From: Methanobacteriota archaeon | Lineage (GTDB): Archaea; Thermoplasmatota; Poseidoniia; Poseidoniales; Poseidoniaceae | Assembly (NCBI GenBank): GCA_002722615.1 | Contig: PBMQ01000035.1 | Coordinates: 2,460-66,459 of the forward strand | Length of the DNA stretch: 64,000 nucleotides | Reading direction: 5' to 3' | Part shown: positions 4,530-62,893 of the stretch, one piece after another | Position numbering within the stretch: position 1 is the stretch's first letter | Layout of the letters: the number at the start of each line of letters is the position of its first letter | Translations under genes and position numbers: made by a program | Notes under the pieces: model-generated | The model's database searches: none | Told to the model about the DNA's origin: nothing | Seen by the model: the letters and a program-made list of their open reading frames with translations, nothing else

Positions 4530-6755
4530 ATGTCCGGCGAAGATAACGAAGTTTCACTGCGTGTAGCAAAAGCAATACCTTCAGATGTAGGTCATGGCCG
4601 AGCCAGAATCTCTGGCGATCACGGTCTCGACCTCAAACCAGGGGACATTGTCGAAATCAAAGGCGAAAAACGCTCTACAGCAGCAATCTACTGGCGTAGC
4701 CGCCCAGAGGATGCAAAGATGGACATCATTCGAATTGACGGAATCATCCGAAAGAATGCTGGTGTCAGCCTTGGAGACCGTGTTACAATTTCCAAAGCAG
4801 AAGTGAAGGAATGCACAAAGCTCACCCTATCTCCTGTCATGGCCAACAAGCAGAAGGTCAAGTTTGGTCCGGGAATTGAAGGCTTTGCTCGCCGAGGTCT
4901 TTCCAAGCGACCGGTAATGGCCGGCGATCGTATCTTTATTCCAGGTATGACTCTGTTTGCAGAAGCATTGCCTTTCGCTGTTGTTCAAACAACACCAAAG
5001 GGTATCGTCAAGGTGACCAGCGACACGGACATTATCATCAAGGATGAGGCCATTGACGACGAAGACGTTGGTCAGTCTGAAGGCATCACTTACGAAGACG
5101 TTGGCGGTATAGGTCAACAACTCCAGAAGGTTCGTGAGATGATTGAGCTGCCACTTAAGCACCCCGAATTGTTTCGTCGTTTGGGCATCGACCCACCAAA
5201 AGGGGTTCTTCTCCATGGACCGCCCGGTACGGGAAAGACCATGATTGCGAAGGCAGTAGCAACAGAAGTGAACGCACACTTCAAGGCAATCAATGGCCCT
5301 GAAATCATTTCAAAGTACTACGGAGAATCTGAGAAACAACTCCGTGAGATTTTTGATGAAGCCAGTGAAAAGGCTCCTGCGATAATTTTCATCGATGAAA
5401 TCGATTCAATTTGTCCCAAGCGTGAAGATGTAAGCGGAGAGGTTGAACGACGTGTAGTTGCGCAAATGCTCACTCTCTTGGATGGAATGCAAGGAAGGGA
5501 CAATGTTGTCGTTATTGGTGCAACCAACCGACGTGATGCGCTCGACCCTGCACTTCGTCGTGGTGGACGTTTTGATCGAGAGATTGAGATTGGCGTTCCC
5601 GACCGAGAAGGTCGAAAGGAAATCATGGAAGTTCATACTCGTCAAATGCCAATCGCCGATGATTTTGAAGTGAACTGGGTTCTTGACAACACCTACGGAT
5701 TTGTTGGTGCTGATCTAGCCGCTCTCGTCCGAGAGGCAGCCATGAAGGCACTTCGAAGATACCTCCCAGAAATTGACCTCGAAGAGGAAACGATTCCTCC
5801 AGAAGTCCTCGAGAAAATGGAAGTTCGAATGGAAGATTTCCGAGACGCAATCAAGGACATTGAACCCTCTGCCTTGCGAGAAATTTACGTCGAAGTGCCA
5901 GAGATTGCATGGGACGAGGTCGGTGGACTTGATGAGGTCAAGGATCGCCTAAAAGAATCCGTTGAGTGGCCATTGACCAAGCCCGAAATTTTCGAGCACT
6001 TCAACATTAAGCCACCCCGAGGCATCGTTCTATTCGGCGCACCAGGTACCGGTAAAACGCTCCTTGCGAAAGCAATTGCAAACGAAGCTCAGGCGAATTT
6101 CATCTCCATCAAAGGTCCTGAAATGATTTCAAAATGGGTGGGTGAATCCGAACGTGGTATCCGAGAGATATTCAAGAAGGCGAAGCAATCCTCTCCATCA
6201 ATCATCTTCCTTGATGAGTTTGAATCCATTGCCAGCATGCGAAACGCTTCAAATGGCGAAGGCAGCGATGTAGGTAACCGCGTCGTTAACCAACTGCTTG
6301 CCAGCATGGACGGTGTTGAGTCCTTAGACGGAGTCATCGTTGTTGCAGCAACCAACCGTCCCGAGATGATTGACCCTGCTCTCTTGCGAAGCGGACGTTT
6401 TGAGCGTGTCTTGCACGTTCCACCTCCAGATGCACCAGCACGTGAAGCCATTTTCGAAATCCATTCAGAAGGAATGCCTCTTTCGAAATTCTCCATTAAA
6501 GATCTCCTTACACAAATGGAAGGATTTACTGGTGCAGATATCGAAGCTGTCTGCCGTGAAGCAGCCCTTATCGCAATGCGAGAAGACAAGAAGAAGGTCG
6601 CAAAGAAACACTTTGACGAGGCTGTCACACGTGTTCGTCCAACGGTGACTCCTGAGATGCTTGAATACTATCAGAAGATGGAAACACGGCTGACCTCAGG
6701 TTTGTCGAACATCAAGCGAACACGAGACTACGGTTTCGGTATGGAAACAATGTGA
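4530..6755 (+). CDS. cdc48: Cdc48/VCP/VAT-type double-ring AAA+ ATPase
   Basis: N-terminal double-psi barrel-like region ([16 protein letters not shown]...). Two AAA modules with Walker A GPPGTGKT and GAPGTGKT, and Walker [10 protein letters not shown] and IIFLDEFES. Confidence 0.95.
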
Positions 6756-6808
6756 GCACGGAAACGGTCAAGTCCTGCCGATGTCGACCACAATGTAAGG
6801 CGAATCGC

Positions 6809-7051
6809 ATGGCATCGAGTTTCGGACAGGAAATGCTTGGGCGAACTGTTCAAGATAAGAAAGGGAAGGAACTCGGCAAACTTGTCGACCTTGTTGTTGA
6901 TGTCTCCAACGGAGAAATCTCTGAACTTCTCGTAAAGTGCTCCGATAATATCGATACAACACGTCTACCCTTTCCTGTTAAAGAAGGAGCAGTAGCCATC
7001 CCTTCAACCGAAGTTTCCACATTCAGCCATGTGATTATGCTCAAAATTTGA
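6809..7051 (+). CDS. PRC-barrel domain protein (stand-alone, ~80 aa)
   Basis: MLGRTVQDKKGKELGKLVDLVVDVSNGEISELLV fits the PRC-barrel pattern (G..V.d..G..lG.v.d...d...g.i..l.v). The ORF is open from a GTG at 6752 that overlaps the cdc48 stop (GTGA). The ATG at 6809 is chosen. Confidence 0.7.
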   Translation: MASSFGQEMLGRTVQDKKGKELGKLVDLVVDVSNGEISELLVKCSDNIDTTRLPFPVKEGAVAIPSTEVSTFSHVIMLKI

Positions 7052-7137
7052 TGAGCATTATCGCAACAGGGCTGGACAACCTTCTAAACCGATGTGAAAC
7101 CGTGTATGTATGAACGGTGTACTAGGGAGGTGTTGAA

Positions 7138-8754
7138 ATGGCGGCCGAGCGAAGCAGAAATTTTAGGCGAATTGGTCTCCAATTGGCATTCTGGGCAGTT
7201 CTCGGAATTCTCCTTCTTACCATTCTTCAGAACTTTATCAACATCAGCCAGTCAACACAATTGTCGGCATATGATGATGACTGGGACGACATGTCAGCAT
7301 TCCGTGAAGACATTAATGACATGGGTGTCGAAACAAAATCATTGGTAAGTAGCCCACTTCTTTTGGCTGATATTGAAGATCCTCGCAACACGACATATAT
7401 TATCGCCGGCGTTGAACGAGATACACTCTCATTCCCTCAATTCGATGAAGATGGATTCATTACGATCGCTACAGAAGACGGTTATTCCCCATCAGAAGTT
7501 GATGCAATTGTAGAGTTTGTCGATAACGGTGGAACCGTCATCGTACTGGAAGACTTTGGCTATGCAGGAAGTATCGGCGAAGCCTACGGTGTTCGATATT
7601 CTGGTTACCAACTGTACGATACGAATTACGTTTCTGAACTTGATTACAACTACATTTGGATGTGTGTTCAAGCAAGTCCCTGTGGTATGAATGGTACCGT
7701 GCTTGACCCTTCAACAATTGAAGAACACGAGCGATGGTCCTCCGAAGTAGGTGCACACCCTTGTTCACAACTCGATGGACAATCAATGACAAAGAAAGAA
7801 GCAGGTGTTTGCTCGCATCACTGGGTCAAGAGCGCTGGTGACCTAGGAAGAATTGAATACAATGCGACCTACACAATGTTGCTTAACAATGTGACAGGCC
7901 TCGAAATCGTACCGGGGGTGCGTGGTGCTCTCAAAGATGTCAGCGTTCGAGCAGTGACCAGCAACCAAGCTACAGTTGACGTTAATGGTGATGGAAAGTT
8001 GTGGATTGGTAACGAACAAAATAGTGAAACTCCCGATCTGTGGGGTCAATTCAATCTCTCCATTGAAGCATGCGCCTCAACAAACTGTGACCCAGATGAA
8101 GGAGGGCGCGTTTTCTTCATTGCAGACGGTAGTTCTCTCATAAACGCGATTTACGACTATGAAGGATTCAACAATGGAGAATATGGTGCAACTGAGAAGT
8201 TGATTCCAGCAAACGACAACCGAAAGTGGGCGCTTGACGTCATTGCAGAAGCGTTGATGAGCACGATTGAAGGCGAGGATGGACAGCCTGCAGAGAATGC
8301 CTTGGTCATCTTTGACGAAAGTAGGCACCCACAGAATGCTCTCCTTGCAGATTCCTACAACACAGTTTACTTCCTTTTGGTTTATTTCACCGGAGAGGGC
8401 TTGGCAATGCTTGCTCTCTTTGTTGTCCTCTTCATTACCTTCGAAGCAGTTCTTCTCAAGAAGCGTGATCCAGAACCTTGGCGTCACGTTTTCAGCATCA
8501 TCTACTACGGATTTGGCGATGCAAATCGATACACGTACTATGCCAAAACGGAGAAAATACGGCAGGTGTTCCTTTCGAAAGTCCGCAACCAGAACGGTTT
8601 GACAGTCGAAGAATTCCACGCAATGTCTGCGAAAGAACTTGTAGGATTAATTCAAGATCCAGTGTTGGCAAAATTTGCGATTGAACCAGGAAAATACTCC
8701 TTGGAACAATCCGTGGCTTTAGTTAAACGAATCAAAGCATGGGGGCGTAGGTGA
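7138..8754 (+). CDS. DUF4350-like membrane-anchored protein
   Basis: GGAGGTG SD 5 nt before the ATG. N-terminal TM (LQLAFWAVLGILLLTILQNF). TYIIAGVERDTLSFPQF...VEFVDNGGTVIVLEDFGYAG resembles DUF4350/GldG-like domains. C-terminal TM (LAMLALFVVLFITF). Confidence 0.55.
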   Translation: MAAERSRNFRRIGLQLAFWAVLGILLLTILQNFINISQSTQLSAYDDDWDDMSAFREDINDMGVETKSLVSSPLLLADIEDPRNTTYIIAGVERDTLSFPQFDEDGFITIATEDGYSPSEVDAIVEFVDNGGTVIVLEDFGYAGSIGEAYGVRYSGYQLYDTNYVSELDYNYIWMCVQASPCGMNGTVLDPSTIEEHERWSSEVGAHPCSQLDGQSMTKKEAGVCSHHWVKSAGDLGRIEYNATYTMLLNNVTGLEIVPGVRGALKDVSVRAVTSNQATVDVNGDGKLWIGNEQNSETPDLWGQFNLSIEACASTNCDPDEGGRVFFIADGSSLINAIYDYEGFNNGEYGATEKLIPANDNRKWALDVIAEALMSTIEGEDGQPAENALVIFDESRHPQNALLADSYNTVYFLLVYFTGEGLAMLALFVVLFITFEAVLLKKRDPEPWRHVFSIIYYGFGDANRYTYYAKTEKIRQVFLSKVRNQNGLTVEEFHAMSAKELVGLIQDPVLAKFAIEPGKYSLEQSVALVKRIKAWGRR

Positions 8755-10013
8755 GTATCATGTGGACACGTAAGGCAGCCTTTACCTTCACAGGAGGTAT
8801 TGCACTCATTCTCATTGGGATGATGATTACCAACAACCAGATGATGATTCTAGGTTTGGCTCTCATTACGTTCATCGTGGTGAACTCATGGGTGTCGGGT
8901 CATGGTGATATTGAGGTCCAGCGAACCTTATCCGCAGACAATTTGTACAAAGGAGACGATCTTTACGTTGAGTTATTGGTGACCAACCGATCAAACCGTC
9001 GAACACAATTGTTGGATGTTTATGATAACATTCCTCACGAAATGAAACTCCGAAGTGGATTGAATCAAATGCGACTTAATCTCCGTCCAGGAGAAAGTGC
9101 ACGAATTCGATACGTCCTTCGATGTCCGCTCCGAGGGCACTATTCCATTGGACCTGTATCCTTGCGTGTTCGTAACACCTTCAACCTAGGAGTTGAGGAT
9201 ATGTACGTTGACCATCATTCCGACATTGTCATCTTCCCTCAAATCAAGGAAGTCGAGGAAGCATTTCTGCGCTCACGTACTCCAAAGATGTATACTGGTG
9301 CAACAACATTGCGAACTCCAGGACAAGGCTCAGAGTTTTACTCTTTGAGAGAATACGTGCCTGGGGATCCGTTCAAGAACATCAACTGGAAGGCATTTGC
9401 GCGAACAGGTGACCTCATGGTCAATGAAAAGTGTCGTGATGCAGTTACTGATTTGTACATTCTTCTCGATTCACGCGACGTATCTCGAATAGGCACGGTT
9501 CTGAAGAATCCACTTGAGATGGGAACCGTGAGTGCAGCAAGCCTTGCAGCGTTTTTCTTGAAGCGAAGAGACAGTGTTGCACTTGGAATATACGGTGACG
9601 GTCTGGCCTATTTACCTCCTGACACAGGAGACAAGCAGTATTTCAAAATCCTCAGTTCACTTGCTGGAGTGAAGCCTGAGGGTGCCATGCCATTGCAAGC
9701 TGTTACGAATTCTCTAAGTGGACGTTTCAGTCGCGGCAGCCCAGTTTTCGTCATTTCCTCTTGTGAAGGTGATGGAACCGTTCCTGCTGCAGTCCGAGAC
9801 CTAGTTGGTCGTGGTCACGAAGTAACCGTCCTATCTCCGTCAAGCATCGATTTCGAGCGCCTCGTTTCTCGTATACCACGTATGTCGTATGAAGTTCTCA
9901 AATTGGAGCGCCAGAACAGGCTGACGACTCTCGCAGGCTCAGGAGCACAAGTTATCGATTGGATGCCTGACATGGACCTATCGCAAGCAATCATGCAGGT
10001 AAGGGGGTATTAG
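8751..10013 (+). CDS. DUF58 domain protein (vWA-like, MoxR-associated family)
   Basis: Two N-terminal TM helices. Diagnostic DUF58 core GQGSEFYSLREYVPGDPFKNINWKAFARTGDLMVNEK. The GTG start overlaps the upstream stop (GTGA); alternative ATG at 8760. Confidence 0.85.
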   Translation: MSIMWTRKAAFTFTGGIALILIGMMITNNQMMILGLALITFIVVNSWVSGHGDIEVQRTLSADNLYKGDDLYVELLVTNRSNRRTQLLDVYDNIPHEMKLRSGLNQMRLNLRPGESARIRYVLRCPLRGHYSIGPVSLRVRNTFNLGVEDMYVDHHSDIVIFPQIKEVEEAFLRSRTPKMYTGATTLRTPGQGSEFYSLREYVPGDPFKNINWKAFARTGDLMVNEKCRDAVTDLYILLDSRDVSRIGTVLKNPLEMGTVSAASLAAFFLKRRDSVALGIYGDGLAYLPPDTGDKQYFKILSSLAGVKPEGAMPLQAVTNSLSGRFSRGSPVFVISSCEGDGTVPAAVRDLVGRGHEVTVLSPSSIDFERLVSRIPRMSYEVLKLERQNRLTTLAGSGAQVIDWMPDMDLSQAIMQVRGY

Positions 10014-11216
10014 ATGGCAGGTGAAGTAGACCCACAAAGTGACGTTTCCTTGATGGGAGGGCGTGCACGAACACTTCATCTCAAAGCCTTGCGTAAGCAG
10101 TGGCAAATCATTACATTGCAGGTTGTATCGACCATTGCTCTCGTTTGGATGTATCTCGAAGTTGTCTCCACATATGTCGTCAACAGCATCGATCACACCA
10201 TGCTGTTCGAATCACTTGAATCGCTTGTTGGAGAGGTACCAATCGGAGATTGGTTAATTGGTTCAGGGAGAACCGGTCTTGCTCGTTTCTATGTTCCTAT
10301 TGTACTGGGTTTGGGCCTCGGTGGCTCGATGGCGATCATGGCTTTCCAGTCGCCAAGAGTTCAGCAACGAATCAAATTGGGCTTCATCATTACACTCATG
10401 GTACTCCTTGTCGGTCGTCTGATTCTGACTTGGGTTCCTTCGATGCTTTTCTCCTTAGAATTCAGAGCACCTTACGAAAGCGAACTCAAGACACTCGAAT
10501 GGCCGTTGTTGATGATTCTATCCCTGATTATCCTCTTCATCTATCTCCTCCCTGTGATTATGGGGACGCGTGGAATATGGGGTCTTTCTCGACGATCGAT
10601 TGGATGGGCTATTGGATTCACGCTCCTGTTTCTCGCCATCCATGCCATCCTCACTTTCCCGTTGATTAAGTCCCAATTAGGTGATTGGGGGTCGAATTTG
10701 ATTTCGCTTGAATCTCAAGTAAGTGATCCAACGGTTGGGATATTTGGATATTATTTCGTTACCGAAGAGCAGTTTTCTCTCATTTCGATTGCAGTCCTGA
10801 TCATGGTCTTCCAAGAATCTGGATTTGGTGTCATCCGCTATCTTGAGTACGCATATCGTCTTCCAGAGTCTTGCAAGCGAGACCCAGAATATGTCCGACA
10901 AATGGACAATGTTTTGAACGGTCATCTTCGACACACAGCAGGATTCCTAACCGTTACAGGACTTGTTACCGTTGTAGCCTTGGGCTTTCACAGTGTCCTT
11001 TTGGAATTTGTACGGAATTCAACAGGAAGTCAATGGGCTGCACAAGTTTCGGAATCCATTGAATTATCCCTCACTTATGGTTTGGTCATCTCTGCTCTTC
11101 TCTTTTTGAGCCTCGTTGCAGTATTGCGATTCTTTGTTCCATGGCAACGTGTTTGGGGATTGATTGAGTCGATGACTAACAAAACGCCTGAACCAGTTAA
11201 AGAAAAAGAATTCTGA
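10014..11216 (+). CDS. Polytopic membrane protein, unknown function (third gene of the DUF4350-DUF58 operon)
   Basis: The ATG directly abuts the DUF58 stop (TAGATG). Eight or more hydrophobic segments. No motif recognised. Confidence 0.55.
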   Translation: MAGEVDPQSDVSLMGGRARTLHLKALRKQWQIITLQVVSTIALVWMYLEVVSTYVVNSIDHTMLFESLESLVGEVPIGDWLIGSGRTGLARFYVPIVLGLGLGGSMAIMAFQSPRVQQRIKLGFIITLMVLLVGRLILTWVPSMLFSLEFRAPYESELKTLEWPLLMILSLIILFIYLLPVIMGTRGIWGLSRRSIGWAIGFTLLFLAIHAILTFPLIKSQLGDWGSNLISLESQVSDPTVGIFGYYFVTEEQFSLISIAVLIMVFQESGFGVIRYLEYAYRLPESCKRDPEYVRQMDNVLNGHLRHTAGFLTVTGLVTVVALGFHSVLLEFVRNSTGSQWAAQVSESIELSLTYGLVISALLFLSLVAVLRFFVPWQRVWGLIESMTNKTPEPVKEKEF

Positions 11217-11453
11217 TCAATTCGTAGCACGAATCGACTGAATCAATCGTCCAACGATTTCCGTAAGAATCAACATTGACAGTGCTAATCCTATAGATGC
11301 AAGCCATTGATACCAGACAACGTCTATGCGTGACCATAGGATTTGATTGAGATAGATGAACCCAACAATGGCGATTAAAAAGACGAGCTTTTCGAGCATC
11401 ATTGGATACGATGAGCCCTTTGATTCATTCCGGAAGAGAAGGGTTTCAACCAT
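11217..11453 (-). CDS. Small two-TM membrane protein, unknown function
   Basis: 78-aa ORF starting 9 nt after the stop of the coiled-coil gene (TGAGGCGATAGCATG, with GAGG as a possible SD). Two hydrophobic helices (LVFLIAIVGFIYLNQILW, LASIGLALSMLILTEIVG). Confidence 0.5.
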   Translation of the reverse strand: MVETLLFRNESKGSSYPMMLEKLVFLIAIVGFIYLNQILWSRIDVVWYQWLASIGLALSMLILTEIVGRLIQSIRATN

Positions 11454-11462
11454 GCTATCGCC

Positions 11463-14400
11463 TCAGAAGTCCAATTCAGAGAGTTGATCATGCAAGGCTT
11501 CCAATCGAGGGTCTCTCTTAGGTTCCTCGGCAGGAGCGGGACGTAATCGGCGTTCTGAATCAAGTCGAGCAAGTTCAGCCTCGAGATCAGCACGATCTTC
11601 TTGCAAAGGAACAGTTGGAGTCTCTTCAACAGATGCAGTTTGAGGGGTAGAGTCCTCAGGTGCAGGCATTTCTTCCCATTCAGCAATTACTTCTACAACC
11701 GCAGGTTCAGCATCGAGAGAGACGCTTTCTTCAACAACCAAGGTGGGTTGAATGTGTTCCATCATATCATCCATTACAGGAGTTCGCTGACCAACCGGAA
11801 TTGATGTGCGTTCAAAGGGTAGGAATCCATCTCGTTGGAAATCCCACATTGCTCCTCGAGGAACGCCTTTTGTTAATCCAGATGCATCGATTTGAGTTAA
11901 TAATTCTTCAAGGACCTGTGCTGTTTGCTCAAGAGCAATCGCTTCACCAGCATCACGTTGATCTGCCTCTAGATAGATGTCGTCAAGGGCAACTCGAATC
12001 AATCGTCGAGTCTCAACAGCCACGCTCGGTAGAGCCTCAGGGCGCATGCAGTTCATGCGCAATGCATCAATCTCTTCAGGTGGAGCACCAAGAGTACCAA
12101 GTTGATCGAGTACATTTCTCATGCGACGAAGCATGGTTATCGAGCGATCATAATCTTCGAGAATTCCTTCCAAATCAAGGATCAGATGACCAACAGTTTC
12201 TCCGAGTTGATTTTCCAATCGTTGTTGAACTGACCAGCGAGCCAGGCCACGCACAGCACCTGCAGTTTGCGGAACTTGTCGCTCAAGAAGTGTCATCACC
12301 TCACTGCTGAGCAAATGACGTGGTGTAGCCGCTATGTGATCGACGGTCGACTGAACGATTTGTAGAGCACGCTCAACTGCTCGGTCGAGTAAAATCACCG
12401 AGTATCCGAGCGTGCGTGCGTGTTCAAGTCGGTCAAGAACAGGACCAAGGCCACGGAAGGTTGCATCATCATTGAGTAGTGCCTGTGCAAGTGGTTCTTC
12501 TGATAAGCGAGCGCGAAGTCGTTCCGCTTCTGCGATATCAGACACTGCCTCTTCATGTGCCTCTGTAAGTGCTTCTGCACGAGAAATCAATCCGGAAAGT
12601 TCGGTCTCAGCATTTCCTCGTCGTGCACCGAGATTTCCAAGTTCAGTCAACAATTCCTTTCGTTCACCCATCAATTCGCGCATCTCTGAATGCAATTGCA
12701 TTCGACGAGCTTCATCTTCAGCTAAGCGTTGCCGCTCTTCTTCAGCACGTCGACGACTTGAGAGTGTTTCTGCTTCAATTTGGTCCAATCGAGCCTGTGC
12801 TGCACGAATCTTTTCTTCAGAAGCATTGCTCTTAGTTTGAGCATCAGCTTGCCGTTCACGCAGTGATGACACCTGTTCTTCCATAGCACGTAGTCGGCGT
12901 TCCTCAAGTTCGATTTGCTCACGAATTGATGACAGTCGCTCAGCATTCGCAACCATGTCTGCACGGGTAGTCGCTTCTTGATTGGAGAGCGTCTCAAGTT
13001 CGTTTCGAAGCGCTTCACTGCTCTGCGTATCGCCGAGTGCTTTGGCCAATTCAGAGGCTCTTTCACTGAGTTGATGCTCAAGTTCGCTGACGCGGCGAAG
13101 AAGGCGATCTGCACGTTCTTCAGCTTGCTCCATTCGTGTTCTCGATTCTGATACGGTGACCTGTACACGATTGAGTTCATCGTTCTTTGATTGAATAGTT
13201 TCGACTTGTACACCTGTCGATTGTTTGATTTCATCGAGACGGACCATTGCCTCAGTTCGATCCTTCTCTGCATCTTGCAACTGACTGGTCAGCGTTGCGT
13301 TGGTACGCATCAGAGAATCTGCACGACGTTCGGATTCCTCTAAGCGACGGCGCAAACCTGAATCAACACCAGATAAAGGAGCGGCACTGGGAAGCGTTTG
13401 TGCTGTTTCTTGACCTCCTACATAGATGCTCAGTTTCGAACGAACAACTCGCACTTCGTCGAGTCCAATTTCGAAACCGTACATGTTGTTCAATCGTAAC
13501 ATCATTGATTCACGGCGCTTTTCAGAGCGTGTTCTCACGGTTGAAAGTGCTTCAACGAACTGTTGTAGCGTGAATTTCTCAACATCGCCAGTTGACGATG
13601 AAACCATCGTTCCTGAGGCAAGTCGATGGAGTTTCAGAACACGCTTGCTTTCGGTTAGTCCTTGCATTGCGTCCTCAAAGGACTGCCCATTCGCAGCCAT
13701 TCCAACCGGAAGGCCGTTGTTGAGAGCCAGTGAAACTGCTTTGTCGCTTGCTCCCGCTTTGAGATGCCCGGTAACTCGTTCTTCAAGCGCAGCCGTAAGC
13801 ATGGACATCACAGCATCTGCTCCGCCTTTGCCTTCCCGCAGAACAAATCCGTCCGGTAGAGTGGCAGATCCTTCTGCATATGTTCCAATTTCACCATCGA
13901 GTTTTGCTGTGACGTCGGTAAGTAGTCGGGCATGGTTTGCATCGAGTTCAGTCCAAATTGCGAGGACAATGGTGCTGCTTGAGGCAAGAAGTAAGGAGGT
14001 ATCTTCCATGTTCAATGAGGCATACCCGTATCCATCTCCTCCGAGCTTAATTTGTTGTTCATCCATCGCAATCGAAAGGGATGCAACAGTAGCAGAAAGA
14101 TCCTCAGGTTCTCCTGGAAGTTTGCCCATACTGTCGATTAGGATGCCTTGGTCTGCAGCCAAGGCGCCTCGGACGTGCTCGTACTCTGAGAGAGCCTGTA
14201 GTACTGCGGATATGTTTCGCGCAAACAAGCGATCCGTAACTGCGTTACCTGAACTAAGACCTTGTGTATCCGCCTGAAATTCGAATGCTTCTGGCAACAG
14301 GGTGGCAATTTCTGCAAGACCCTGCAGGGAACAAGAAGAAGCAACCAATCGGTGTTGATTCTTTTCTGCCTCTTCAAGAGCGTTACGAGCATCTGCTCCA

Positions 14401-14597
14401 CCGAGAAGTTTCGTAGCACTCGCTCCCTCACAAAGCCAACCTACAATACGGCCAGCACGGATCAATCGATGACCAAAGGGGGTTTTTCGCCGCCCAACCC
14501 ACGTTGTGATGAACCCATGTTCGAAGGGCTGAATGCTACCAGAGGAAACATCCAATTCATCATCAATTCGTTCAATGTGTGGTAAGTCAAACATCAT
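11463..14597 (-). CDS. Giant Roadblock/LC7-like + PATAN-like + long coiled-coil protein
   Basis: Residues ~150-250 (VLQALSEYEHVRGALAADQGILIDSMG...DLSATVASLSIAMDEQ...YASLNMEDTSLLLASSSTIVLAIWTELDANHARLL) fit the Roadblock layout. GHLKAGASDKAVSLALNNGLPVGMAANGQSFEDAMQGL is DUF4388/PATAN-like. About 300 residues are E/R/L/A/Q-rich coiled coil. No Walker A. Start ambiguous: the ATG at 14597 gives an ATGA overlap with the upstream stop; the longest ORF starts at 14624. Confidence 0.6.
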   Translation of the reverse strand: MMFDLPHIERIDDELDVSSGSIQPFEHGFITTWVGRRKTPFGHRLIRAGRIVGWLCEGASATKLLGGADARNALEEAEKNQHRLVASSCSLQGLAEIATLLPEAFEFQADTQGLSSGNAVTDRLFARNISAVLQALSEYEHVRGALAADQGILIDSMGKLPGEPEDLSATVASLSIAMDEQQIKLGGDGYGYASLNMEDTSLLLASSSTIVLAIWTELDANHARLLTDVTAKLDGEIGTYAEGSATLPDGFVLREGKGGADAVMSMLTAALEERVTGHLKAGASDKAVSLALNNGLPVGMAANGQSFEDAMQGLTESKRVLKLHRLASGTMVSSSTGDVEKFTLQQFVEALSTVRTRSEKRRESMMLRLNNMYGFEIGLDEVRVVRSKLSIYVGGQETAQTLPSAAPLSGVDSGLRRRLEESERRADSLMRTNATLTSQLQDAEKDRTEAMVRLDEIKQSTGVQVETIQSKNDELNRVQVTVSESRTRMEQAEERADRLLRRVSELEHQLSERASELAKALGDTQSSEALRNELETLSNQEATTRADMVANAERLSSIREQIELEERRLRAMEEQVSSLRERQADAQTKSNASEEKIRAAQARLDQIEAETLSSRRRAEEERQRLAEDEARRMQLHSEMRELMGERKELLTELGNLGARRGNAETELSGLISRAEALTEAHEEAVSDIAEAERLRARLSEEPLAQALLNDDATFRGLGPVLDRLEHARTLGYSVILLDRAVERALQIVQSTVDHIAATPRHLLSSEVMTLLERQVPQTAGAVRGLARWSVQQRLENQLGETVGHLILDLEGILEDYDRSITMLRRMRNVLDQLGTLGAPPEEIDALRMNCMRPEALPSVAVETRRLIRVALDDIYLEADQRDAGEAIALEQTAQVLEELLTQIDASGLTKGVPRGAMWDFQRDGFLPFERTSIPVGQRTPVMDDMMEHIQPTLVVEESVSLDAEPAVVEVIAEWEEMPAPEDSTPQTASVEETPTVPLQEDRADLEAELARLDSERRLRPAPAEEPKRDPRLEALHDQLSELDF

Positions 14598-14935
14598 ATC
14601 ACCTGGGGTTGCTGTGCGTTCCATTCTTTTCGAAGGCGTTCAAGTTCGTATCTCCAGACACCTTTCTTCCCGTCCTTCCCAGACAGGTAGACAAAGAGAT
14701 TGTTGCTAAATCGATCACAGAGAGTTAATCGTCGAGCTTCAATCCAGATCTCAAACAACTGGCCGATGCCGAGGTTGTCTGCAATCGATGAGCAAACTGC
14801 CCACTCTCGTTGTTGGTCTTCACTGGAATCGGGCCATTTTGTCGTGGTTTGTACGACGCTACCGAATTGATCCGACAAGCGAACATGATTTGCACCATCA
14901 AGTTCGCAAAGTTGGGAAAATAACCGGTTTAGCAT
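14594..14935 (-). CDS. Roadblock/LC7 (MglB-like) family small protein
   Basis: MLNRLFSQLCELDG / ANHVRLSDQFGSVVQTT / EDQQREWAVCSSIADNLG / QLFEIWIEARRLTLCDRFSNNLFVYLSGKD follows the alpha-beta-beta-alpha-beta-beta Roadblock pattern. Alternative upstream ATG at 14968. Assignment is by pattern, not by search. Confidence 0.5.
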   Translation of the reverse strand: MLNRLFSQLCELDGANHVRLSDQFGSVVQTTTKWPDSSEDQQREWAVCSSIADNLGIGQLFEIWIEARRLTLCDRFSNNLFVYLSGKDGKKGVWRYELERLRKEWNAQQPQVI

Positions 14936-14990
14936 GCTAGCCCAAACCCCTTGACAACAACGTGCCATTCAAGAACTTTCCCGAAACTCT

Positions 14991-15005
14991 TCCCCCGTAG
15001 GGGGA
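14991..15005. repeat. GC hairpin TCCCCC-GTA-GGGGGA in divergent intergenic region
   Basis: Perfect 6-bp stem with a 3-nt loop, read directly. Lies 23 nt upstream of the ATG at 14968 (minus-strand operon). Confidence 0.6.
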
Positions 15006-17624: not shown

Positions 17625-17684
17625 AGGATGTCCCCTTCTTCTTCAACCATCCAAGCATACCCTTGAACATTGTTGCCAAACAGT

Positions 17685-19496
17685 ATGCAAACAGTCGGTG
17701 GTTTCATGACGAAACCCCGGTCTGGTAGAAATATGCTCTGGGGCGATGTCGAGGAGGCCATTAAATCCGAGCGATTGCTACGTATACAGAGAATCGAGCG
17801 ATTGAGTACGATCTGTGCTTTGTTTTGTTTGACTGGTGCTATCTGGTTGGCTTGGCCAGTTCTCAAAGACGCGTTTGTTGGTGATGCAAGCCTATTAACA
17901 GGTCTTGGCATGCCGGTTCTCGTCTTATTATGGGGCATCGTTATTCAGGATTTGATTCTCGATGATCCTCGAGCTCGGACAAGAATTGGGGCTGCTTCCA
18001 GTGTTGTATGGCCCGTGTTGTTGATGTTTGCTTTACGAGCATATTCCTCCGATGTAACCGACATTGTTGCAACACTAATGTTTGCAGGATTGGGTGTTGC
18101 CATGTATCAATCTTCAGCCAACACCCTTCGAGGCGGAATCGATGTGATGCGCTTCCGAGCCATGATGACCGCAATAGGAGCATTAACCGTACTTGGAATG
18201 CTCGTTGGAGACAGGGCAGGAGAAACTTGGATTCAAGAGCCGGAGGATTGGGCTCATCCTATCCTTTCAGGCATCGTTCTCATCCATGTAGCATATCTCT
18301 GGATAGCAGGTGACGATATGCGTGAAGAACGCAAGGCATTCCGTCAAGAATTGGATGCAATTGAAAACCGTCTTCTCGTCCTTCGTTCACAAGGTGCTGC
18401 TGTCGATCAAGCCAGCAGTCTTGTCATGACTGCAAAGGAGGAAGGTCATATCGACCCGTCGTTTGGTATGCGACTTCTCAATGAAGCAACAGAAGATATC
18501 AACCGTTCACTCTCCCTAGCAACAGATGTTGATGTGGTCCGAAATGAGGCTCTCCTTGTTATTCAACACGCAGAAGACTTGGCTCCTCTTGTGAAGCGAC
18601 CTCGTAAATCCTACGAAATGGGAGAACGAGAAGTGTCGCTAGGTTCATTGCGAGAGGCAGAGGGTCTTTTCCGTCAAGCCAAACGTCGAGCGTCAGAAAT
18701 CGTAACCTGGTGGGCTCAAGCCGAGGAAGCCATCCAAAACGCCGAAGAATTGCTAACAGGTAAGTCTGGAGCGACCATTGAAAACCTACGTCAGATTATA
18801 CGAGATGCCAAGAAACAACTCGGCCGAGAAGCTCCCAAGAAGGCCTTTGAGTTGGCCATTGTTATTCCGATTCAATTGCAGGCAGATGGAGACGCACGTG
18901 AACGTGCTGTTGAAGTCCTCAGCGATGCGGCCAAAGCACTCAAAGCAGCAGATGGATTTGATACATCTGAACTGTCACATCGACTTGAGCAAGCGGAATC
19001 AGCCCTTGATGCAGGCGATACGGGCCAATCAATCGGCCTAGCAGAAGGCGTGATTCGAGTCATTCAAGTCGAACGTGAAGCGATGGAAAGTGTCCGACGA
19101 GCACTGCGTCAACGAAAGAAAATCACCGAACGTTTCGAAGCATTCGAAGATTCAGAATCATGGATGAACCGTTTCAAATTGGTACAAAAGGCAGCAGATG
19201 AACGACAATGGAGTCATGCTGCAACACTTCTTGAACGATTGACTATCGATCTCGATGCACTCGGTAACGAGCAGGATGAGACTCAAGCCCTCCTTGATTT
19301 CGTTCGTCAAGAGTGGTCTGTTTTGAGGAACCAATGCAACGCATCAAGCATCCCAGTCTCTGATGAGGACATGAAGCAAACTGAGGCATCCATTGCCCTC
19401 GCTGAAGGGCGACTCAAAGGTGGCCAGGTTGAAGCAGCGCTAGAACAACTCGGTCAAGCAGATGCTTCAATGGAACGACTACGAAGGCGTGTCTGA
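17685..19496 (+). CDS. Membrane protein with ~390-aa C-terminal helical-repeat domain, unknown function
   Basis: About six TM helices in the first ~215 aa. The rest is Ala/Glu/Leu-rich with a recurring E.A[LI]..AE..L..G-like unit (AEEAIQNAEELLTGK, LEQAESALDAGDTGQ, TEASIALAEGRLKGGQ). The ORF opens at a TTG (17670); first ATG at 17685. Confidence 0.5.
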   Translation: MQTVGGFMTKPRSGRNMLWGDVEEAIKSERLLRIQRIERLSTICALFCLTGAIWLAWPVLKDAFVGDASLLTGLGMPVLVLLWGIVIQDLILDDPRARTRIGAASSVVWPVLLMFALRAYSSDVTDIVATLMFAGLGVAMYQSSANTLRGGIDVMRFRAMMTAIGALTVLGMLVGDRAGETWIQEPEDWAHPILSGIVLIHVAYLWIAGDDMREERKAFRQELDAIENRLLVLRSQGAAVDQASSLVMTAKEEGHIDPSFGMRLLNEATEDINRSLSLATDVDVVRNEALLVIQHAEDLAPLVKRPRKSYEMGEREVSLGSLREAEGLFRQAKRRASEIVTWWAQAEEAIQNAEELLTGKSGATIENLRQIIRDAKKQLGREAPKKAFELAIVIPIQLQADGDARERAVEVLSDAAKALKAADGFDTSELSHRLEQAESALDAGDTGQSIGLAEGVIRVIQVEREAMESVRRALRQRKKITERFEAFEDSESWMNRFKLVQKAADERQWSHAATLLERLTIDLDALGNEQDETQALLDFVRQEWSVLRNQCNASSIPVSDEDMKQTEASIALAEGRLKGGQVEAALEQLGQADASMERLRRRV

Positions 19497-22055
19497 TTAC
19501 ACCAGTTTTCTTCGAATCAAATCGTCAATGTTGATTCCACTAGGTAAACCAAGATCGACTGGCATACCAGCAATGGTCGTTATCACTCCATAGAGATGCA
19601 AATAGAGTCCGAGAGGTGCCTGATGTTCTCCATTGTATGGAATTTTCTTCCACAGGTTGGATTTGCTGAAGTATTTCGAAACAGACTGATTCTGTGAGTG
19701 AACAATCCATGCATTCGCACGTCCTGCATGCCTCCTGGATTGTGTTGATCCAAGTCGAGGAGAGATGTGAACGGTGTGAAGAATCGGCCATTCACGCATC
19801 CAATCCCCTTCAGAATCAATGAGCATGGTCATCTTTGTTGGTTCCGTTGCCATAGCGTCCAAGAGGCCTAGTTCGTTGAGAATTCGTATTAATGATCGTA
19901 CGTGTGGGTGACGTGGTTCTTTCACACGCAAGTCTCGGCCAATCCGGACAGCGGTATTTGGCCGATTTGCATCTAGATGCAACAATGCAGTCACAACTCG
20001 TCCTTGCGTCCATGTCGAAGTCGGTAAGTCGTCATTGGTTTCATGTTGTTTTATGAATCCTTCAAGCATCGAGAGTGCCTCTTCGCTTCGACCATCCAAT
20101 CGCATGCGTGCACAATCTCCAAGCAACATGAGACGGTCAGCAGGTTTGTTCCGATATTTTGTGCTGCTCTGAGGTTCTCCTTTTGCAGTTCGGCGAATGA
20201 GGTCGATGTTTCTGCGTGTGATTGGATCAATACTCAAAACAGGTTGTGAGGTCTCTGGAACGATTCTCTTCGAATCGAGAACTGCCGAAAACCATTGCAG
20301 ACGAGCAGCTTCAACATCGCTCTTATTCAAAAGAGCAAGCCGAGGAGCTGCTTCGGGTAGATCACGTTGGCAAAGACTTGCAGCGGCAAGAATCAATCGA
20401 GCCACTTGAGCATCACGTCCAGTTTGCAGAGCCAGTAAAGAAACTGCATTTTCTTCAGCCTCCTCCCAGCGGTTTAATCCAGCAAACAACTGCATTTTTG
20501 CTCCAGTTTGACGAAGCAAATCCAGTCCTTGGGTCGATTCTTCAGTTGGATTCAAGATATCATCGTAGTGTTCAATCGCTCGAGTCCACAGGTCTTTGCC
20601 GATAAGTTCTGTAATAGGACGTTGTTTGAGATAAATCATGTCCTCCATCTGTGTTAGCATCTGGCGTTGCTCGCTGATGCTTGCATCAAAGGAGATGTCG
20701 TCGAGTTTTGAGCCAACTTGAAGCGATGTCAACCAAATCAGCAAGAAACAGATTTGTCCTCCAGATGCCAACATCCATGTCAGTTCTTCCATAGCATCTT
20801 TTTCGACGTAGGAGCACAATGTATTCTCCCAGTCGCCACAGGCTGCTCCTTGAGGAAGGAAACTTGAATCCCAGAATGTGATCATTGCCAAGGCAAGTAG
20901 AAGCATGGATTGCCCTGCAAAACCAGTGAAACAAAAGTTCAGAACTTTGGCTTGTTGACTACGCTCCGCCCGTAGCAATCGACTATCTGCGAGACGAATA
21001 CCACCTCGGCCTGATACATCCTGAACGTCCAAGAAAAGAATCCGGGCAACTTCATAAACGAACAGGAAACCAACCAAAGCAACGTTGAGAAGAAGGAACA
21101 AGAGAATCGACGTAACCAATGGGACTCGCAACCCAGGGTCAGGGATGTTTGAGAACAATTCAATGAGGAAGAATCCAAGAATACCACCCTCTTCCATGAT
21201 GGTTGCTTGTTCTCGATATTCCTCAAGGCCAATCACTTGGTCGGAATGTGTGAACAATTCTGGAGAAACAACGATGGCAATCAGGGATAACAGCGTATTG
21301 ATCGCAACAACTGGCATTGCAAGCGTATTCAGATGAACAATTCGTGCAATGACCTGTTGCCGTGCATTGGGTGAATGATTGTGAAACGGTGAAGCCTTAC
21401 CCTGCGCAATTTGCGCAGAAGACTGACGCAGAGCTTGCCATGACGTTCCCATCACACGTCCGTAGGCCACAATCGAAGGTGAGAATGCAAGCAGAAGTGT
21501 AGCACTCAATCGATGCGTAAAGGCGACATCCCAAGTTCCTAGGGCGGAGTAGAAAAATGCGACACCGATGAACCAAAAAACGGTCAGTGCAATGTATGCG
21601 GTGTTTCTTGCACTACTCGATTCCTGCAACTTTGCTTTCCCTTGCCCAATTGGTTTGATGATTTGTGCTCCAAGCGAGGAACCCGAAGAAATCACTGCAG
21701 GAAGAATGATCAGGATGAGTGCCAGTGCAATGTTTGGTGCATGGAATCCATCACTCCAACCCTGTGCATAGATAGTGTATTCAAAGAACAACAAAAGCGC
21801 TCCAGTAAGTGCAAAAAGATAGGTTGCAACACCAAAACGCATCCCTCGACTGCGAAGTAGGTCGCGTGCTTCACCGAATGATTCGGTTACCGTATGGACC
21901 TCATATCGCTTGGGTCCTGTTTCGAATGCGACCTGTAAACCTCGCAATTGGCGAGGGACAACAGTTCTCCAGAACAAAAGAGCAATGACTGCTGCAAGAA
22001 TCAATGGAAGGACAGCAATTGAGGCAAAACCCTCAACAATCACTGGTCCAGTCAT
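19497..22055 (-). CDS. Large polytopic membrane protein with C-terminal TPR-like helical domain, unknown function
   Basis: 852 aa. At least 10 hydrophobic helices in the first ~440 aa, then a helical-repeat-like region (NRWEEAEENAVSLLALQTGRDAQVARLILAAASL...). ATAAAA box 23-28 nt upstream of the ATG. No AglB WWDYG motif. Confidence 0.5.
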   Translation of the reverse strand: MTGPVIVEGFASIAVLPLILAAVIALLFWRTVVPRQLRGLQVAFETGPKRYEVHTVTESFGEARDLLRSRGMRFGVATYLFALTGALLLFFEYTIYAQGWSDGFHAPNIALALILIILPAVISSGSSLGAQIIKPIGQGKAKLQESSSARNTAYIALTVFWFIGVAFFYSALGTWDVAFTHRLSATLLLAFSPSIVAYGRVMGTSWQALRQSSAQIAQGKASPFHNHSPNARQQVIARIVHLNTLAMPVVAINTLLSLIAIVVSPELFTHSDQVIGLEEYREQATIMEEGGILGFFLIELFSNIPDPGLRVPLVTSILLFLLLNVALVGFLFVYEVARILFLDVQDVSGRGGIRLADSRLLRAERSQQAKVLNFCFTGFAGQSMLLLALAMITFWDSSFLPQGAACGDWENTLCSYVEKDAMEELTWMLASGGQICFLLIWLTSLQVGSKLDDISFDASISEQRQMLTQMEDMIYLKQRPITELIGKDLWTRAIEHYDDILNPTEESTQGLDLLRQTGAKMQLFAGLNRWEEAEENAVSLLALQTGRDAQVARLILAAASLCQRDLPEAAPRLALLNKSDVEAARLQWFSAVLDSKRIVPETSQPVLSIDPITRRNIDLIRRTAKGEPQSSTKYRNKPADRLMLLGDCARMRLDGRSEEALSMLEGFIKQHETNDDLPTSTWTQGRVVTALLHLDANRPNTAVRIGRDLRVKEPRHPHVRSLIRILNELGLLDAMATEPTKMTMLIDSEGDWMREWPILHTVHISPRLGSTQSRRHAGRANAWIVHSQNQSVSKYFSKSNLWKKIPYNGEHQAPLGLYLHLYGVITTIAGMPVDLGLPSGINIDDLIRRKLV

Positions 22056-61357: not shown

Positions 61358-62884
61358 ATGGCTAGGAAAAAAGGTGGGGGCGGACGAGGCCGACAAAGAG
61401 CACAACAACGTGCACAATATGACGAGCTTGACAAGTACCCTGTCATGCCTCCCCATGCCTTTGCGCGTATCGTTCGTGACAAGCGAACTCTCAACATCAT
61501 TTACCAAATCATTGAACCACCAATGACCAAGAAAGAGCAAGAACAACGTGAAGAGATTATGGACATCTTCATCCGTTCACTTACGGCCAACATCGAAGAG
61601 ATTGACGGCAACCCTGAGGCTTACCTTCGTACTGCGATGGACAAGGTCATCAAATCGTACGGAATGAAAATCACTAAGAAGTCGAAGTCCAAACTGTTCT
61701 ATTACATTCGACGTGACCTCATTGGCTACGGTCAAATGGATGTTCTGATGAATGACGCGAACGTTGAGGATATTTCCCTCGACGGAACAGGCGTGCCGAT
61801 TTTCGCATATCACCGAAAGTTCGAATCTGTTGAGACCACCTGTGTGTGGGATACGGACGATGCACTCGAATCGTACGTTATCAAACTCGCACAACGTTGT
61901 GGTAAGCACATCTCTGTTGCGGATCCGCTGCTTGACGCTACGCTGATGGACGGTTCTCGTATCGTTATGAAACTCGGTCGAGAAGTCTCGACTCGTGGTT
62001 CAGCGTTCTGTATTCGTCGGTTCAAGGATGACCCGTTCTCACCAGCGGATATTGTTGCATTCCGAACCATGTCCTCGTTGATGGTCGCATATCTTTGGAT
62101 TGCCTTCCAGAATGAAGTTCCTATGCTTTTTGTCGGTGGTACTGCTTCTGGAAAGACAACAACCCTCAATGCAATGTGTATCTTTATTCCTTGGCAAATG
62201 AAGATTGTTTCAATCGAATCCACTCGTGAAGTTAACATTCCACAACCAAACTGGGTTCCGGGTCTCACAAGACAAGGGTTCGGTGGGGAATCGAGTGAAG
62301 GTGAAATCGGGGAGTTCGAGTTGCTCAAGGCCGCGTTACGTGAGCGGCCGGAATACATTATTGTGGGTGAGATTCGTGGTGCTGAAGCATATGTTCTGTT
62401 CCAAGCAATGGCGACCGGTCACTGCGCATATTCGACAGTTCACGCAGACTCCGTTCCATCGCTCGTTCACCGATTGGAGAACAAACCGATTGACATTCCA
62501 CGAGTTCTGCTACCTGCGCTTGAAGCATGCGCAATTCAGATTCAAACTCGTATCAATGGACGACGTGTTCGACGAACAAAGCAAATTGTCGAAATTGTTG
62601 GTATCGATCCAAACTCGATGGAAGTTATCACCAACGAAGTGTTCCGTTGGGATGTCTCTTCCGACGACTTCATCTTTAGTGGAAAATCCTACGTTCTTGA
62701 GAAAATTATGGTCAAGATTAACTTCTCACAAGATGAGATGCGCCGTGAGTTGAGAACTCGTAAGCGTATTCTTGAGTGGCTTGTTCTCAACGACATTCGA
62801 AAGGCGGACCAAGTATCGCAAATCGTTACCGAATACTACGTTCGTCCAAATGAAGTTCTTGCACGTGTTGATGGTCTACGCTGA
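61358..62884 (+). CDS. Archaeal type IV pilus/archaellum assembly ATPase (FlaI/ArlI-PilB/GspE superfamily)
   Basis: IIYQIIEPP N-domain. Walker A VGGTASGKTTTLNA. Walker B RERPEYIIVGEIRG. Basic Gly/Arg N-tail MARKKGGGGRGRQRAQQRAQ. Confidence 0.9.
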   Translation: MARKKGGGGRGRQRAQQRAQYDELDKYPVMPPHAFARIVRDKRTLNIIYQIIEPPMTKKEQEQREEIMDIFIRSLTANIEEIDGNPEAYLRTAMDKVIKSYGMKITKKSKSKLFYYIRRDLIGYGQMDVLMNDANVEDISLDGTGVPIFAYHRKFESVETTCVWDTDDALESYVIKLAQRCGKHISVADPLLDATLMDGSRIVMKLGREVSTRGSAFCIRRFKDDPFSPADIVAFRTMSSLMVAYLWIAFQNEVPMLFVGGTASGKTTTLNAMCIFIPWQMKIVSIESTREVNIPQPNWVPGLTRQGFGGESSEGEIGEFELLKAALRERPEYIIVGEIRGAEAYVLFQAMATGHCAYSTVHADSVPSLVHRLENKPIDIPRVLLPALEACAIQIQTRINGRRVRRTKQIVEIVGIDPNSMEVITNEVFRWDVSSDDFIFSGKSYVLEKIMVKINFSQDEMRRELRTRKRILEWLVLNDIRKADQVSQIVTEYYVRPNEVLARVDGLR

Positions 62885-62893
62885 GGTGAATCA

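Follow-up and report, generated by a model that had tools for sequence, protein, structure and literature searches.

A Poseidoniales operon encoding a Roadblock/LC7-like protein, a giant Roadblock coiled-coil protein and a two-transmembrane micro-protein, with no GTPase gene nearby

Gene organization of the operon

The 64,000-nucleotide (64-kb) window analyzed here (contig PBMQ01000035.1 of assembly GCA_002722615.1, positions 2,460 to 66,459, from an archaeon of the Poseidoniaceae) carries on its minus strand three closely packed open reading frames (ORFs) that encode, in the order of transcription, a small Roadblock/LC7-like protein, a giant protein in which a Roadblock domain is joined to a long coiled coil, and a micro-protein with two predicted transmembrane (TM) segments (Table 1). 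Roadblock/LC7 domains are an ancient platform for the regulation of small GTPases, in settings as different as cell polarity in bacteria (MglA/MglB) and, in eukaryotes, Ragulator and dynein. An initial annotation, made from the sequence alone, had proposed these three ORFs as an operon, and strand, coordinates and gene order all stand.

The TGA of the small Roadblock ORF overlaps the start of the giant ORF inside gtgatATGATGttt: a first ATG occupies 14597–14595, the TGA 14596–14594 and a second ATG 14594–14592. The overlap, originally read as ATGA, therefore extends to ATGATG. Translation of the giant protein probably starts at the second ATG, since the family consensus begins MF(D/N)LP. The giant protein, first put at more than 1,040 residues, accordingly has 1,044 residues, or 1,043 when read from the second ATG. 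A Shine-Dalgarno-like string, GGTGAT, lies just upstream of the start. At the other end of the gene, the stop codon is followed by the 9-nt spacer TGAGGCGATAGCATG (11454–11462) and then by the micro-protein ORF, as had been described. The three ORFs are, on the comparative sequence evidence, real genes, because the giant protein has 329 database homologues, its collinearity over the full length persists down to 34% identity and its partner genes are conserved in position. The overlap and the very short spacer further indicate translational coupling of all three genes; the case for coupling is placed on these features because the surrounding chromosomal region is syntenic anyway.

The majority of small-protein homologues begin at the methionine of the 113-residue version. 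The window ORF can be extended in frame to an upstream ATG, which adds the segment MARCCQGVWAS (14936–14968, minus strand); the extension is kept as MxRCCxxVWA in several homologues, and more distant orthologues begin at the downstream methionine, so the start codon in the clade of the window remains uncertain. A perfect hairpin, CCCCC-TAC-GGGGG (14992–15004, minus strand), precedes the ATG at 14968 by 24 nt; it lies in an intergenic region common to the operon and a divergent ttuA-like gene, and may be a leader or regulatory element.

Table 1. Features of the operon, of the giant protein and of the convergent block next to it
Feature	Position in window	Strand	Size or remark	Basis
Small Roadblock ORF	14594..14935	-	113 aa; 124 aa from in-frame upstream ATG at 14968	
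Giant ORF	11463..14597	-	1,044 aa (1,043 aa from second ATG); stop at 11463	
Giant residues 1–125	14223..14597	-	β-rich N-terminal domain, weakly PATAN-like	AF2, profile alignment
Giant residues 126–240	13878..14222	-	Roadblock/LC7 domain	AF2, Foldseek, Pfam in relatives, hhalign
Giant residues 246–345	13563..13862	-	small α/β domain, PATAN-like (unproven)	AF2, profile alignment
Giant residues 346–412	13362..13562	-	conserved helix and low-confidence linker	AF2, alignment
Giant residues 413–701	12495..13361	-	coiled coil of ~290 residues	heptad scan, composition
Giant residues 702–945	11763..12494	-	best-conserved part of the protein	alignment identity
Giant residues 946–1044 and stop	11463..11762	-	acidic, proline-rich variable tail	alignment
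Micro-protein ORF	11217..11453	-	78 aa; begins 9 nt past the giant stop	
CDC48 AAA+	4530-6755	+		Pfam
PRC-barrel protein	6752-7051	+		Pfam
DUF4350-like	7138-8754	+		Pfam
DUF58	8751-10013	+		Pfam
Multi-TM protein	10014-11216	+	400 aa	no Pfam hit

Domain structure of the three proteins

Residues of the giant protein are numbered here on the 1,044-residue version counted from position 14597, from which the numbering of the initial annotation is offset by 9 residues. An AlphaFold2 (AF2) model of residues 1–415, computed from an input alignment of 24 sequences that reached 21% identity, has a mean predicted local distance difference test score (pLDDT) of 80. In this model, residues 126–240 fold in the layout α-β-β-α-β-β-β-α (helix 129–137, strands 142–149 and 152–158, helix 164–184, strands 191–196, 200–207 and 210–217, and helix 222–233), with pLDDT mostly 80–91. 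A Foldseek search of the Protein Data Bank (PDB) with the model returned 90 matches at E<=1e-3, and the best 50 of these 90 are all Roadblock proteins. The best is the Asgard Roadblock protein 7yh1 (E 3.7e-6, TMt 0.75, root-mean-square deviation 2.7 Å), and the others listed include MglB, the CvnB-like 3kye and LAMTOR subunits.

At the level of sequence, the Pfam scan finds no Robl_LC7 match in the window giant or its close relatives. The family does match the equivalent position in five of nine divergent relatives, where the best score (21.5 bits, E 2e-4) falls below the cut-off of 23, and alignment of the domain with Pfam-annotated bacterial Roadblock domains by hhalign gives a probability of 84% (P 8e-6). 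A PDB sequence search with the profile of the N-terminal 415 residues returned only LAMTOR5, at E 1.1. The strong modelling and sequence evidence taken together establishes residues 126–240 as a Roadblock/LC7 domain. Such a domain had been proposed for this protein, with bounds of ~150–250 that do not hold; the actual bounds correspond to 135–249 in the earlier numbering.

The AF2 model of the small protein is of low confidence (pLDDT 64), with the layout α-β-β-α-β-β-α and residues 51–68 unmodelled. Its best 50 Foldseek matches in the PDB are all Roadblock-superfamily chains (E ~1e-3, TM score 0.5–0.6), among them LAMTOR, MglB, MglC, LC7 and Asgard Roadblock chains. The window protein itself has no Robl_LC7 match in a direct Pfam/NCBIfam scan. 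It is, however, a full-length homologue (E 4e-12) of 113-residue positional orthologues in loci L001 and L003, which belong to other Poseidoniaceae lineages, and with 24.3 bits the L003 orthologue exceeds the Robl_LC7 gathering score of 23. The small-protein family profile aligns with the Roadblock half of bacterial fusion proteins described below (hhalign probability 47%, P 2e-4), and a PDB sequence search with the same profile gave no match. A divergent Roadblock/LC7 fold for the small protein is established by this moderate sequence and model evidence, in keeping with the fold pattern first recognized in its predicted helices and strands. Duplication was considered as an origin of the repeated modules, either within the operon (small Roadblock family against giant Roadblock domain) or within the giant protein (domain 1 against domain 3), and was rejected, the hhalign scores being weak (P 0.02–0.12).

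Two further small domains flank the Roadblock domain of the giant protein. The N-terminal one (residues 1–125) folds as β-β-β-β-α-β-α with pLDDT 80–92 in the AF2 model and was missed in the initial annotation; it precedes the Roadblock domain, the same place that PATAN occupies in bacterial PATAN-Roadblock fusions. The second (residues 246–345) folds as β-α-β-β-β-α-β with pLDDT 86–93. It is followed by a region with the motif RTRSExR...GFE.G, in which R355, G374 and F375 are invariant; AF2 predicts a helix at 359–386 and pLDDT falls below 50 from residue 395.

Residues ~270–340 had been described as PATAN/DUF4388-like, a description that finds no support from the Pfam model and some from profile comparison. 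PF14332 (PatA_N/DUF4388) gives no match by hmmscan at E<=10 in the window giant, in 14 close relatives or in nine divergent relatives. We know of no solved PATAN structure. A PATAN profile was built from 110 proteins retrieved with a consensus query; the validity of the set does not depend on that query, because all 110 carry a precomputed PF14332 label. This profile aligns with residues 246–345 over 43 columns in the expected register, that of the tG.L...G.iyf.dG.iv.A...GeeA core (hhalign P 0.0018, 0 of 150 column shuffles, z 5.6), and with residues 1–125 over a G-R-I-V/GG..A..L segment (P 0.0043, 1 of 150 shuffles, z 3.7), compared with P 0.011, 2 of 150 shuffles and z 3.2 for a Roadblock control. 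The hhalign probabilities for the two domains are 8–15%. The PATAN identity of both is thus suggestive but unproven.

The heptad scan is positive over the whole coiled-coil region (residues 413–701), which is rich in E, R, A and L and contains no proline between 408 and 701; its alignment shows breaks with a conserved glycine near 519–527 and 652–664. The initial annotation had placed this coiled coil at ~420–720, in agreement once the offset is taken into account, and had noted the helical domain and acidic tail that follow. The only database similarity of the coiled coil is to SMC/Rad50 arms: NCBIfam SMC and Rad50 models align to residues 430–711 (E 2e-12 to 2e-9), at coiled-coil arm positions only and with scores of 36–46 bits against cut-offs of 567–1087 bits. 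These matches, and those to CreS_N, were rejected as coiled-coil noise in the direct Pfam/NCBIfam scans. No Walker A or GK[ST] motif was found anywhere in the giant protein, as its first description had also held in setting it apart from SMC/Rad50 proteins.

The helical domain C-terminal to the coiled coil (residues 702–945) has a family identity of 47–78%, against 19–55% in the N-terminal domains, a degree of conservation compatible with a conserved binding partner. Neither Pfam nor the PDB gave a significant sequence match; among 14 members, Pfam gave scattered sub-threshold matches with no consistent family, and FliS (PDB sequence search, E 0.03) was rejected as helical-bundle noise. Beyond the variable tail, a C-terminal peptide of the form L..x L x (D/E/N)(L/I/F)(D/E)(L/F/I)-COOH is kept in all lineages down to 34% identity. 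The extreme C-terminus (11466–11510, minus strand) reads LxxRLxxLD-hydrophobic in most Poseidoniaceae, with Gln for Arg in the window protein; the peptide resembles the MIM1 motif of ESCRT-III (LxxRLxxL).

The micro-protein has two hydrophobic stretches, at about residues 22–41 and 46–70, as its initial description as a two-TM protein implied. Homologues of 82–83 residues occupy the same position in L001, L003 and L006 (pairwise E 2e-6 to 6e-13), and share the patterns YP..LE+L and (A/T)E(I/M)(I/V)GR(L/M/V)(I/L)Q; the Pfam/NCBIfam scan gave only a weak Cation_ATPase_C match. Loss of the micro-protein in the P0160 lineage was considered and rejected, a homologous ORF being present downstream of an inserted FG-GAP gene; in L004/L005 this homologue is found by tblastn at E 4e-5. 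The insertion (L004/L005, 13221–14721) encodes a 448-residue FG-GAP-repeat protein that has a signal-like segment at its N-terminus and a TM segment at its C-terminus, lies between the giant gene and the micro-protein homologue and overlaps the 3′ end of the giant gene by ~50 nt.

Distribution, gene neighborhood and the search for a GTPase

The database homologues of the giant protein share 52–99% identity with it, and a 97%-identical NCBI entry comes from a Poseidoniaceae metagenome-assembled genome (MAG), which places the window in that family. A HMMER search of 1.84 billion cluster representatives with the giant N-terminal profile gave 73 hits, ~12 of them full length (1,020–1,089 residues) and collinear down to 34% identity. 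This search returned nothing outside the giant family and no bridge to other Roadblock or PATAN families. By source names, the family is confined to the order Poseidoniales, in which it occurs in both Poseidoniaceae and Thalassarchaeaceae. All NCBI names seen for the homologues are "hypothetical protein", and a few JGI records bear names derived from COG, mostly "Roadblock/LC7/MglB family"; a literature search found no report on the protein in Poseidoniales or Marine Group II (MGII).

The three genes stay together in L001, L003 and L006. In L004/L005, the lineage that diverges most, the FG-GAP insertion interrupts the trio. On this comparison of loci, which reaches 34% identity, the trio is co-conserved across the order, which answers the question, raised with the first description of the operon, of whether the arrangement recurs in related genomes.

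No small ORF with a Walker A motif was found by a scan of the ORFs of the 64-kb window. A phmmer search in which a genuine MglA-like GTPase was the query and the six-frame translations of the window and of L001, L003, L004 and L006 (±10 kb) were the target reached a best E of 0.76, and the gene tables of the related loci list no GTPase family. Coupling within a few genes to an MglA-family GTPase, which is typical of MglB-type proteins without being universal among them, is absent here; to our knowledge, no catalytic residue motif defines MglB. The lack of a GTPase gene in the operon and its flanks, as first noted, thus extends to the entire window and to four related lineages, although it is less unusual than had been suggested: 328 of 749 surveyed MglB homologues are not coupled to an MglA gene (PMC4316618). 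Because such orphan homologues are common, the missing neighbor is notable but not exceptional.

The plus-strand genes that converge on the operon (4530–11216) form a block whose last stop, at 11216, directly abuts the micro-protein stop at 11217. In every Poseidoniales locus examined, this CDC48-PRC-DUF4350-DUF58-membrane protein block lies beside the giant gene. The usual ATPase companions of DUF58 and DUF4350 are of the MoxR type; the AAA+ neighbor in this block is CDC48. On the other side of the operon, 17670–22055 of the window holds two large proteins without a Pfam family, of 608 (plus strand) and 852 residues (minus strand); genes of similar size, matched by size and position and likewise without a Pfam family, occupy the corresponding place in L001 (586 and 801 residues) and L004 (581 and 1001 residues). 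At 61358–63913 (plus strand), ~47 kb from the operon, there is a gene pair for a T2SSE secretion ATPase of the type-IV-pilus/archaellum type, PilB3-like at its C-terminus, and, after it, a T2SSF platform protein. By analogy, this pair is a candidate target of the PATAN-like giant protein, because PATAN proteins have been reported to bind such ATPases.

Bacterial relatives, interpretation and comparison with known systems

Several of the PF14332 proteins retrieved for the PATAN profile are PATAN-Roadblock fusions of ~240 residues (231–247). At three independent bacterial loci, known from metagenome or MAG sequences (L008–L010, with the Anaerolineae protein P0246; L011; and L012), the fusion lies beside a protein of 120–135 residues and an Arf/MglA-like GTPase. 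A Roadblock identity is shown for the small protein of L008 (23.2 bits) and of L011 (recorded Robl_LC7 hit); the 131-residue protein of L012 gave no Pfam match. Two of the three loci (L008–L010 and L012) share the gene order of the window, with the small gene immediately upstream of the fusion. Genes for a histidine kinase, response regulator, CheW or protoglobin are found nearby in L008–L012. The fusion family is collinear with residues 27–236 of the giant protein (hhalign probability 78%, 194 columns), with nearly all of the score coming from the Roadblock half. As far as we know, this operon of GTPase, small Roadblock and PATAN-Roadblock protein is recurrent in bacteria and has no experimental characterization.

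The bacterial and archaeal operons are alike in having a small gene beside a protein in which PATAN, or its positional counterpart, precedes Roadblock. They differ in that the Arf/MglA-like GTPase and two-component or CheW genes are always present in the bacterial operons and none is found in the archaeal one, which has in addition the two-TM micro-protein. The giant protein adds ~800 residues to the bacterial design, namely the second small α/β domain, the coiled coil, the 245-residue conserved domain and the acidic tail, and its N-terminal domain is not significant against PF14332. Judged from sequence, the bacterial operons are a clear relative and the closest that we found, a relationship that covers the N-terminal half of the giant protein only. 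The initial statement that the operon matches no described archaeal system needs qualifying to this extent. The bacterial loci agree with the published gene association of PATAN with MglA and MglB, in which MglB homologues are often encoded near PATAN proteins (PMC4316618). Most likely, then, the archaeal operon descends from a bacterial-type GTPase polarity or signalling module made up of an MglA-like GTPase, an MglB-like Roadblock protein and a PATAN-Roadblock fusion.

Roadblock domains are described as dimeric platforms for GTPases (PMC3747258), and the pilus motor ATPase PilB1 is a binding partner of PATAN response regulators (bioRxiv 10.1101/2021.06.11.447907). In the reading that we favor, though tentatively, the operon would encode a platform for the placement or regulation of an NTPase whose gene lies elsewhere. 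The small Roadblock protein would pair with the Roadblock domain of the giant protein to give a two-Roadblock platform, as in the MglB dimer, MglB/MglC and LAMTOR2/3; the coiled coil may dimerize or extend the protein; the micro-protein would hold the assembly at the membrane; and the C-terminal domain with its terminal peptide would bind a conserved cellular partner. Candidates for the NTPase are small GTPases and type-IV-pilus-type ATPases, the latter because PATAN proteins are reported to bind that class.

Several observations weigh against such a platform. No closer similarity was detected between the two Roadblock modules than between either of them and other Roadblock domains (hhalign P 0.02–0.04), the model of the small protein is of low confidence (pLDDT 64), no GTPase is encoded in the window or the related loci, and the PATAN assignment is weak, with no PF14332 match and low profile-profile scores. 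Gene order and analogy are the only grounds for proposing the heterodimer, the anchoring in the membrane and a partner for the C-terminal domain. Moreover, synteny across the order extends to the whole region, with pyrBI, ttuA and thrS, and conserved adjacency beyond the overlapping trio therefore carries little weight.

A possible but less likely explanation is that the giant protein is a GTPase-independent structural protein, a coiled-coil element of the cytoskeleton or envelope of the crescentin or AglZ/FrzS type, whose Roadblock modules serve only in dimerization or assembly, like LC7 in dynein, and regulate no NTPase. The absence of a GTPase from operon, window and related loci is what this explanation predicts, and orphan MglB homologues are common and uncharacterized (PMC4316618). 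The failure of Pfam to recognize either of the divergent window Roadblocks would be in keeping with the loss of a GTPase-binding constraint, the protein is dominated by a proline-free coiled coil of ~290 residues, and its best-conserved part is the C-terminal domain rather than the Roadblock domain. The gene order nevertheless mirrors that of bacterial operons that contain a GTPase, the two separate Roadblock modules kept throughout the order fit a platform function, and no filament-forming property can be read from the sequence. The initial idea of a membrane-tethered cytoskeletal or polarity scaffold is plausible as an inference. In its most extended form, which we consider rather unlikely, an MglB/PATAN module would have turned GTPase-free and become a membrane-anchored Roadblock heterodimer on a ~40-nm coiled-coil stalk, part of a lineage-specific, loosely "Ragulator-like" cytoskeletal or positioning apparatus whose near-invariant C-terminal domain organizes a core machine; the division apparatus, the pilus/archaellum motor and the neighboring CDC48/DUF58 complex would be the machines in question, with the same reserve.

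The neighborhood offers another possibility, which seems improbable to us, in which the operon works with the convergent CDC48/PRC/DUF4350/DUF58/membrane-protein block and the giant protein acts as an adaptor or substrate-recruiting scaffold, its C-terminal peptide docking on the AAA+ machine or on a DUF58/DUF4350 membrane complex. The block abuts the operon, with stops at 11216 and 11217, and adjoins the giant gene in every lineage examined, to 34% identity, and the giant protein does end in a conserved acidic/hydrophobic peptide. Convergent orientation, however, means separate transcripts, pyrB, pyrI, ttuA and thrS are equally syntenic so that the adjacency may be simple inheritance, and no domain of the giant protein is known to bind CDC48. 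That the giant protein is instead an SMC/Rad50-like chromosome organizer with its ATPase head lost or replaced is suggested by the NCBIfam alignments to 430–711, but these lie far below the cut-offs and are confined to the coiled-coil arms. With no ATPase motif, no detected hinge and an N-terminal 415 residues that fold as Roadblock and small α/β domains rather than as an ABC head, we rejected this explanation as very improbable.

Poseidoniales are among the most abundant planktonic archaea, and an entire order keeps two Roadblock modules per operon, one of them fused to a coiled coil and an unusually conserved domain. Should the complex function in the absence of any GTPase, it would reveal the capabilities of Roadblock platforms on their own and would provide a first handle on cell organization in the uncultivated MGII archaea; if a distant GTPase partner exists, the two would form a new archaeal GTPase-regulator pair outside the Asgard lineage. 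In either case, a Poseidoniales core gene named "hypothetical protein" gains a domain map and testable partners. We regard the interest of the operon as moderate, given its presence throughout an archaeal order that is ecologically dominant and uncultivated.

Among characterized systems, the Roadblock/LC7 fold is shared with Myxococcus xanthus MglB/MglC and Thermus thermophilus MglB (6hjm, 6h5b, 3t12, 1j3w, 7ct3), structures that match the giant domain with TM scores of 0.6–0.74 and the small protein with 0.46–0.59. MglB and MglC are, moreover, a paralogous Roadblock pair within one system. MglB, by contrast, is a stand-alone protein of ~160 residues that acts on MglA and is usually encoded beside it, whereas no MglA lies near the archaeal operon, the larger archaeal Roadblock is embedded in a 1,044-residue protein and HMMER does not connect the families among the 1.84 billion representatives. 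The Streptomyces conservon protein CvnB (3kye) is also a Roadblock/LC7 protein and is among the top structural matches of the giant domain (E 3.7e-6); it belongs to a membrane-associated multi-protein signalling complex (PMC4316618), which differs from the archaeal operon in containing the GTPase CvnD, the histidine kinase CvnA and CvnC. The Asgard Roadblock proteins (7yh1, 9jue, 9jq8, 7f8m) are likewise archaeal and give the best structural matches to the giant domain. Unlike it, they are single-domain proteins with neither a coiled-coil fusion nor a micro-protein partner, and they have been studied with Asgard small GTPases (PMC10933270).

The arrangement is also reminiscent of Ragulator/LAMTOR (5y3a, 5yk3, 6ehr), a platform of Roadblock heterodimers that a small dedicated subunit anchors to a membrane. 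LAMTOR chains head the structural matches of the small protein and also figure among the top ones of the giant domain, and the operon encodes two Roadblock modules and an adjacent two-TM protein. LAMTOR1 is lipid-anchored and wraps the Roadblock dimers, whereas the archaeal candidate anchor has two TM segments and a sequence unrelated to it; the Rag GTPases engage Ragulator with Roadblock domains of their own, and no such GTPase occurs in the window or the related loci. The likeness to Ragulator would thus be functional only. Set against these systems, the archaeal operon, which has no GTPase nearby and no characterized counterpart, is most likely a lineage-specific elaboration of the MglB/PATAN module.

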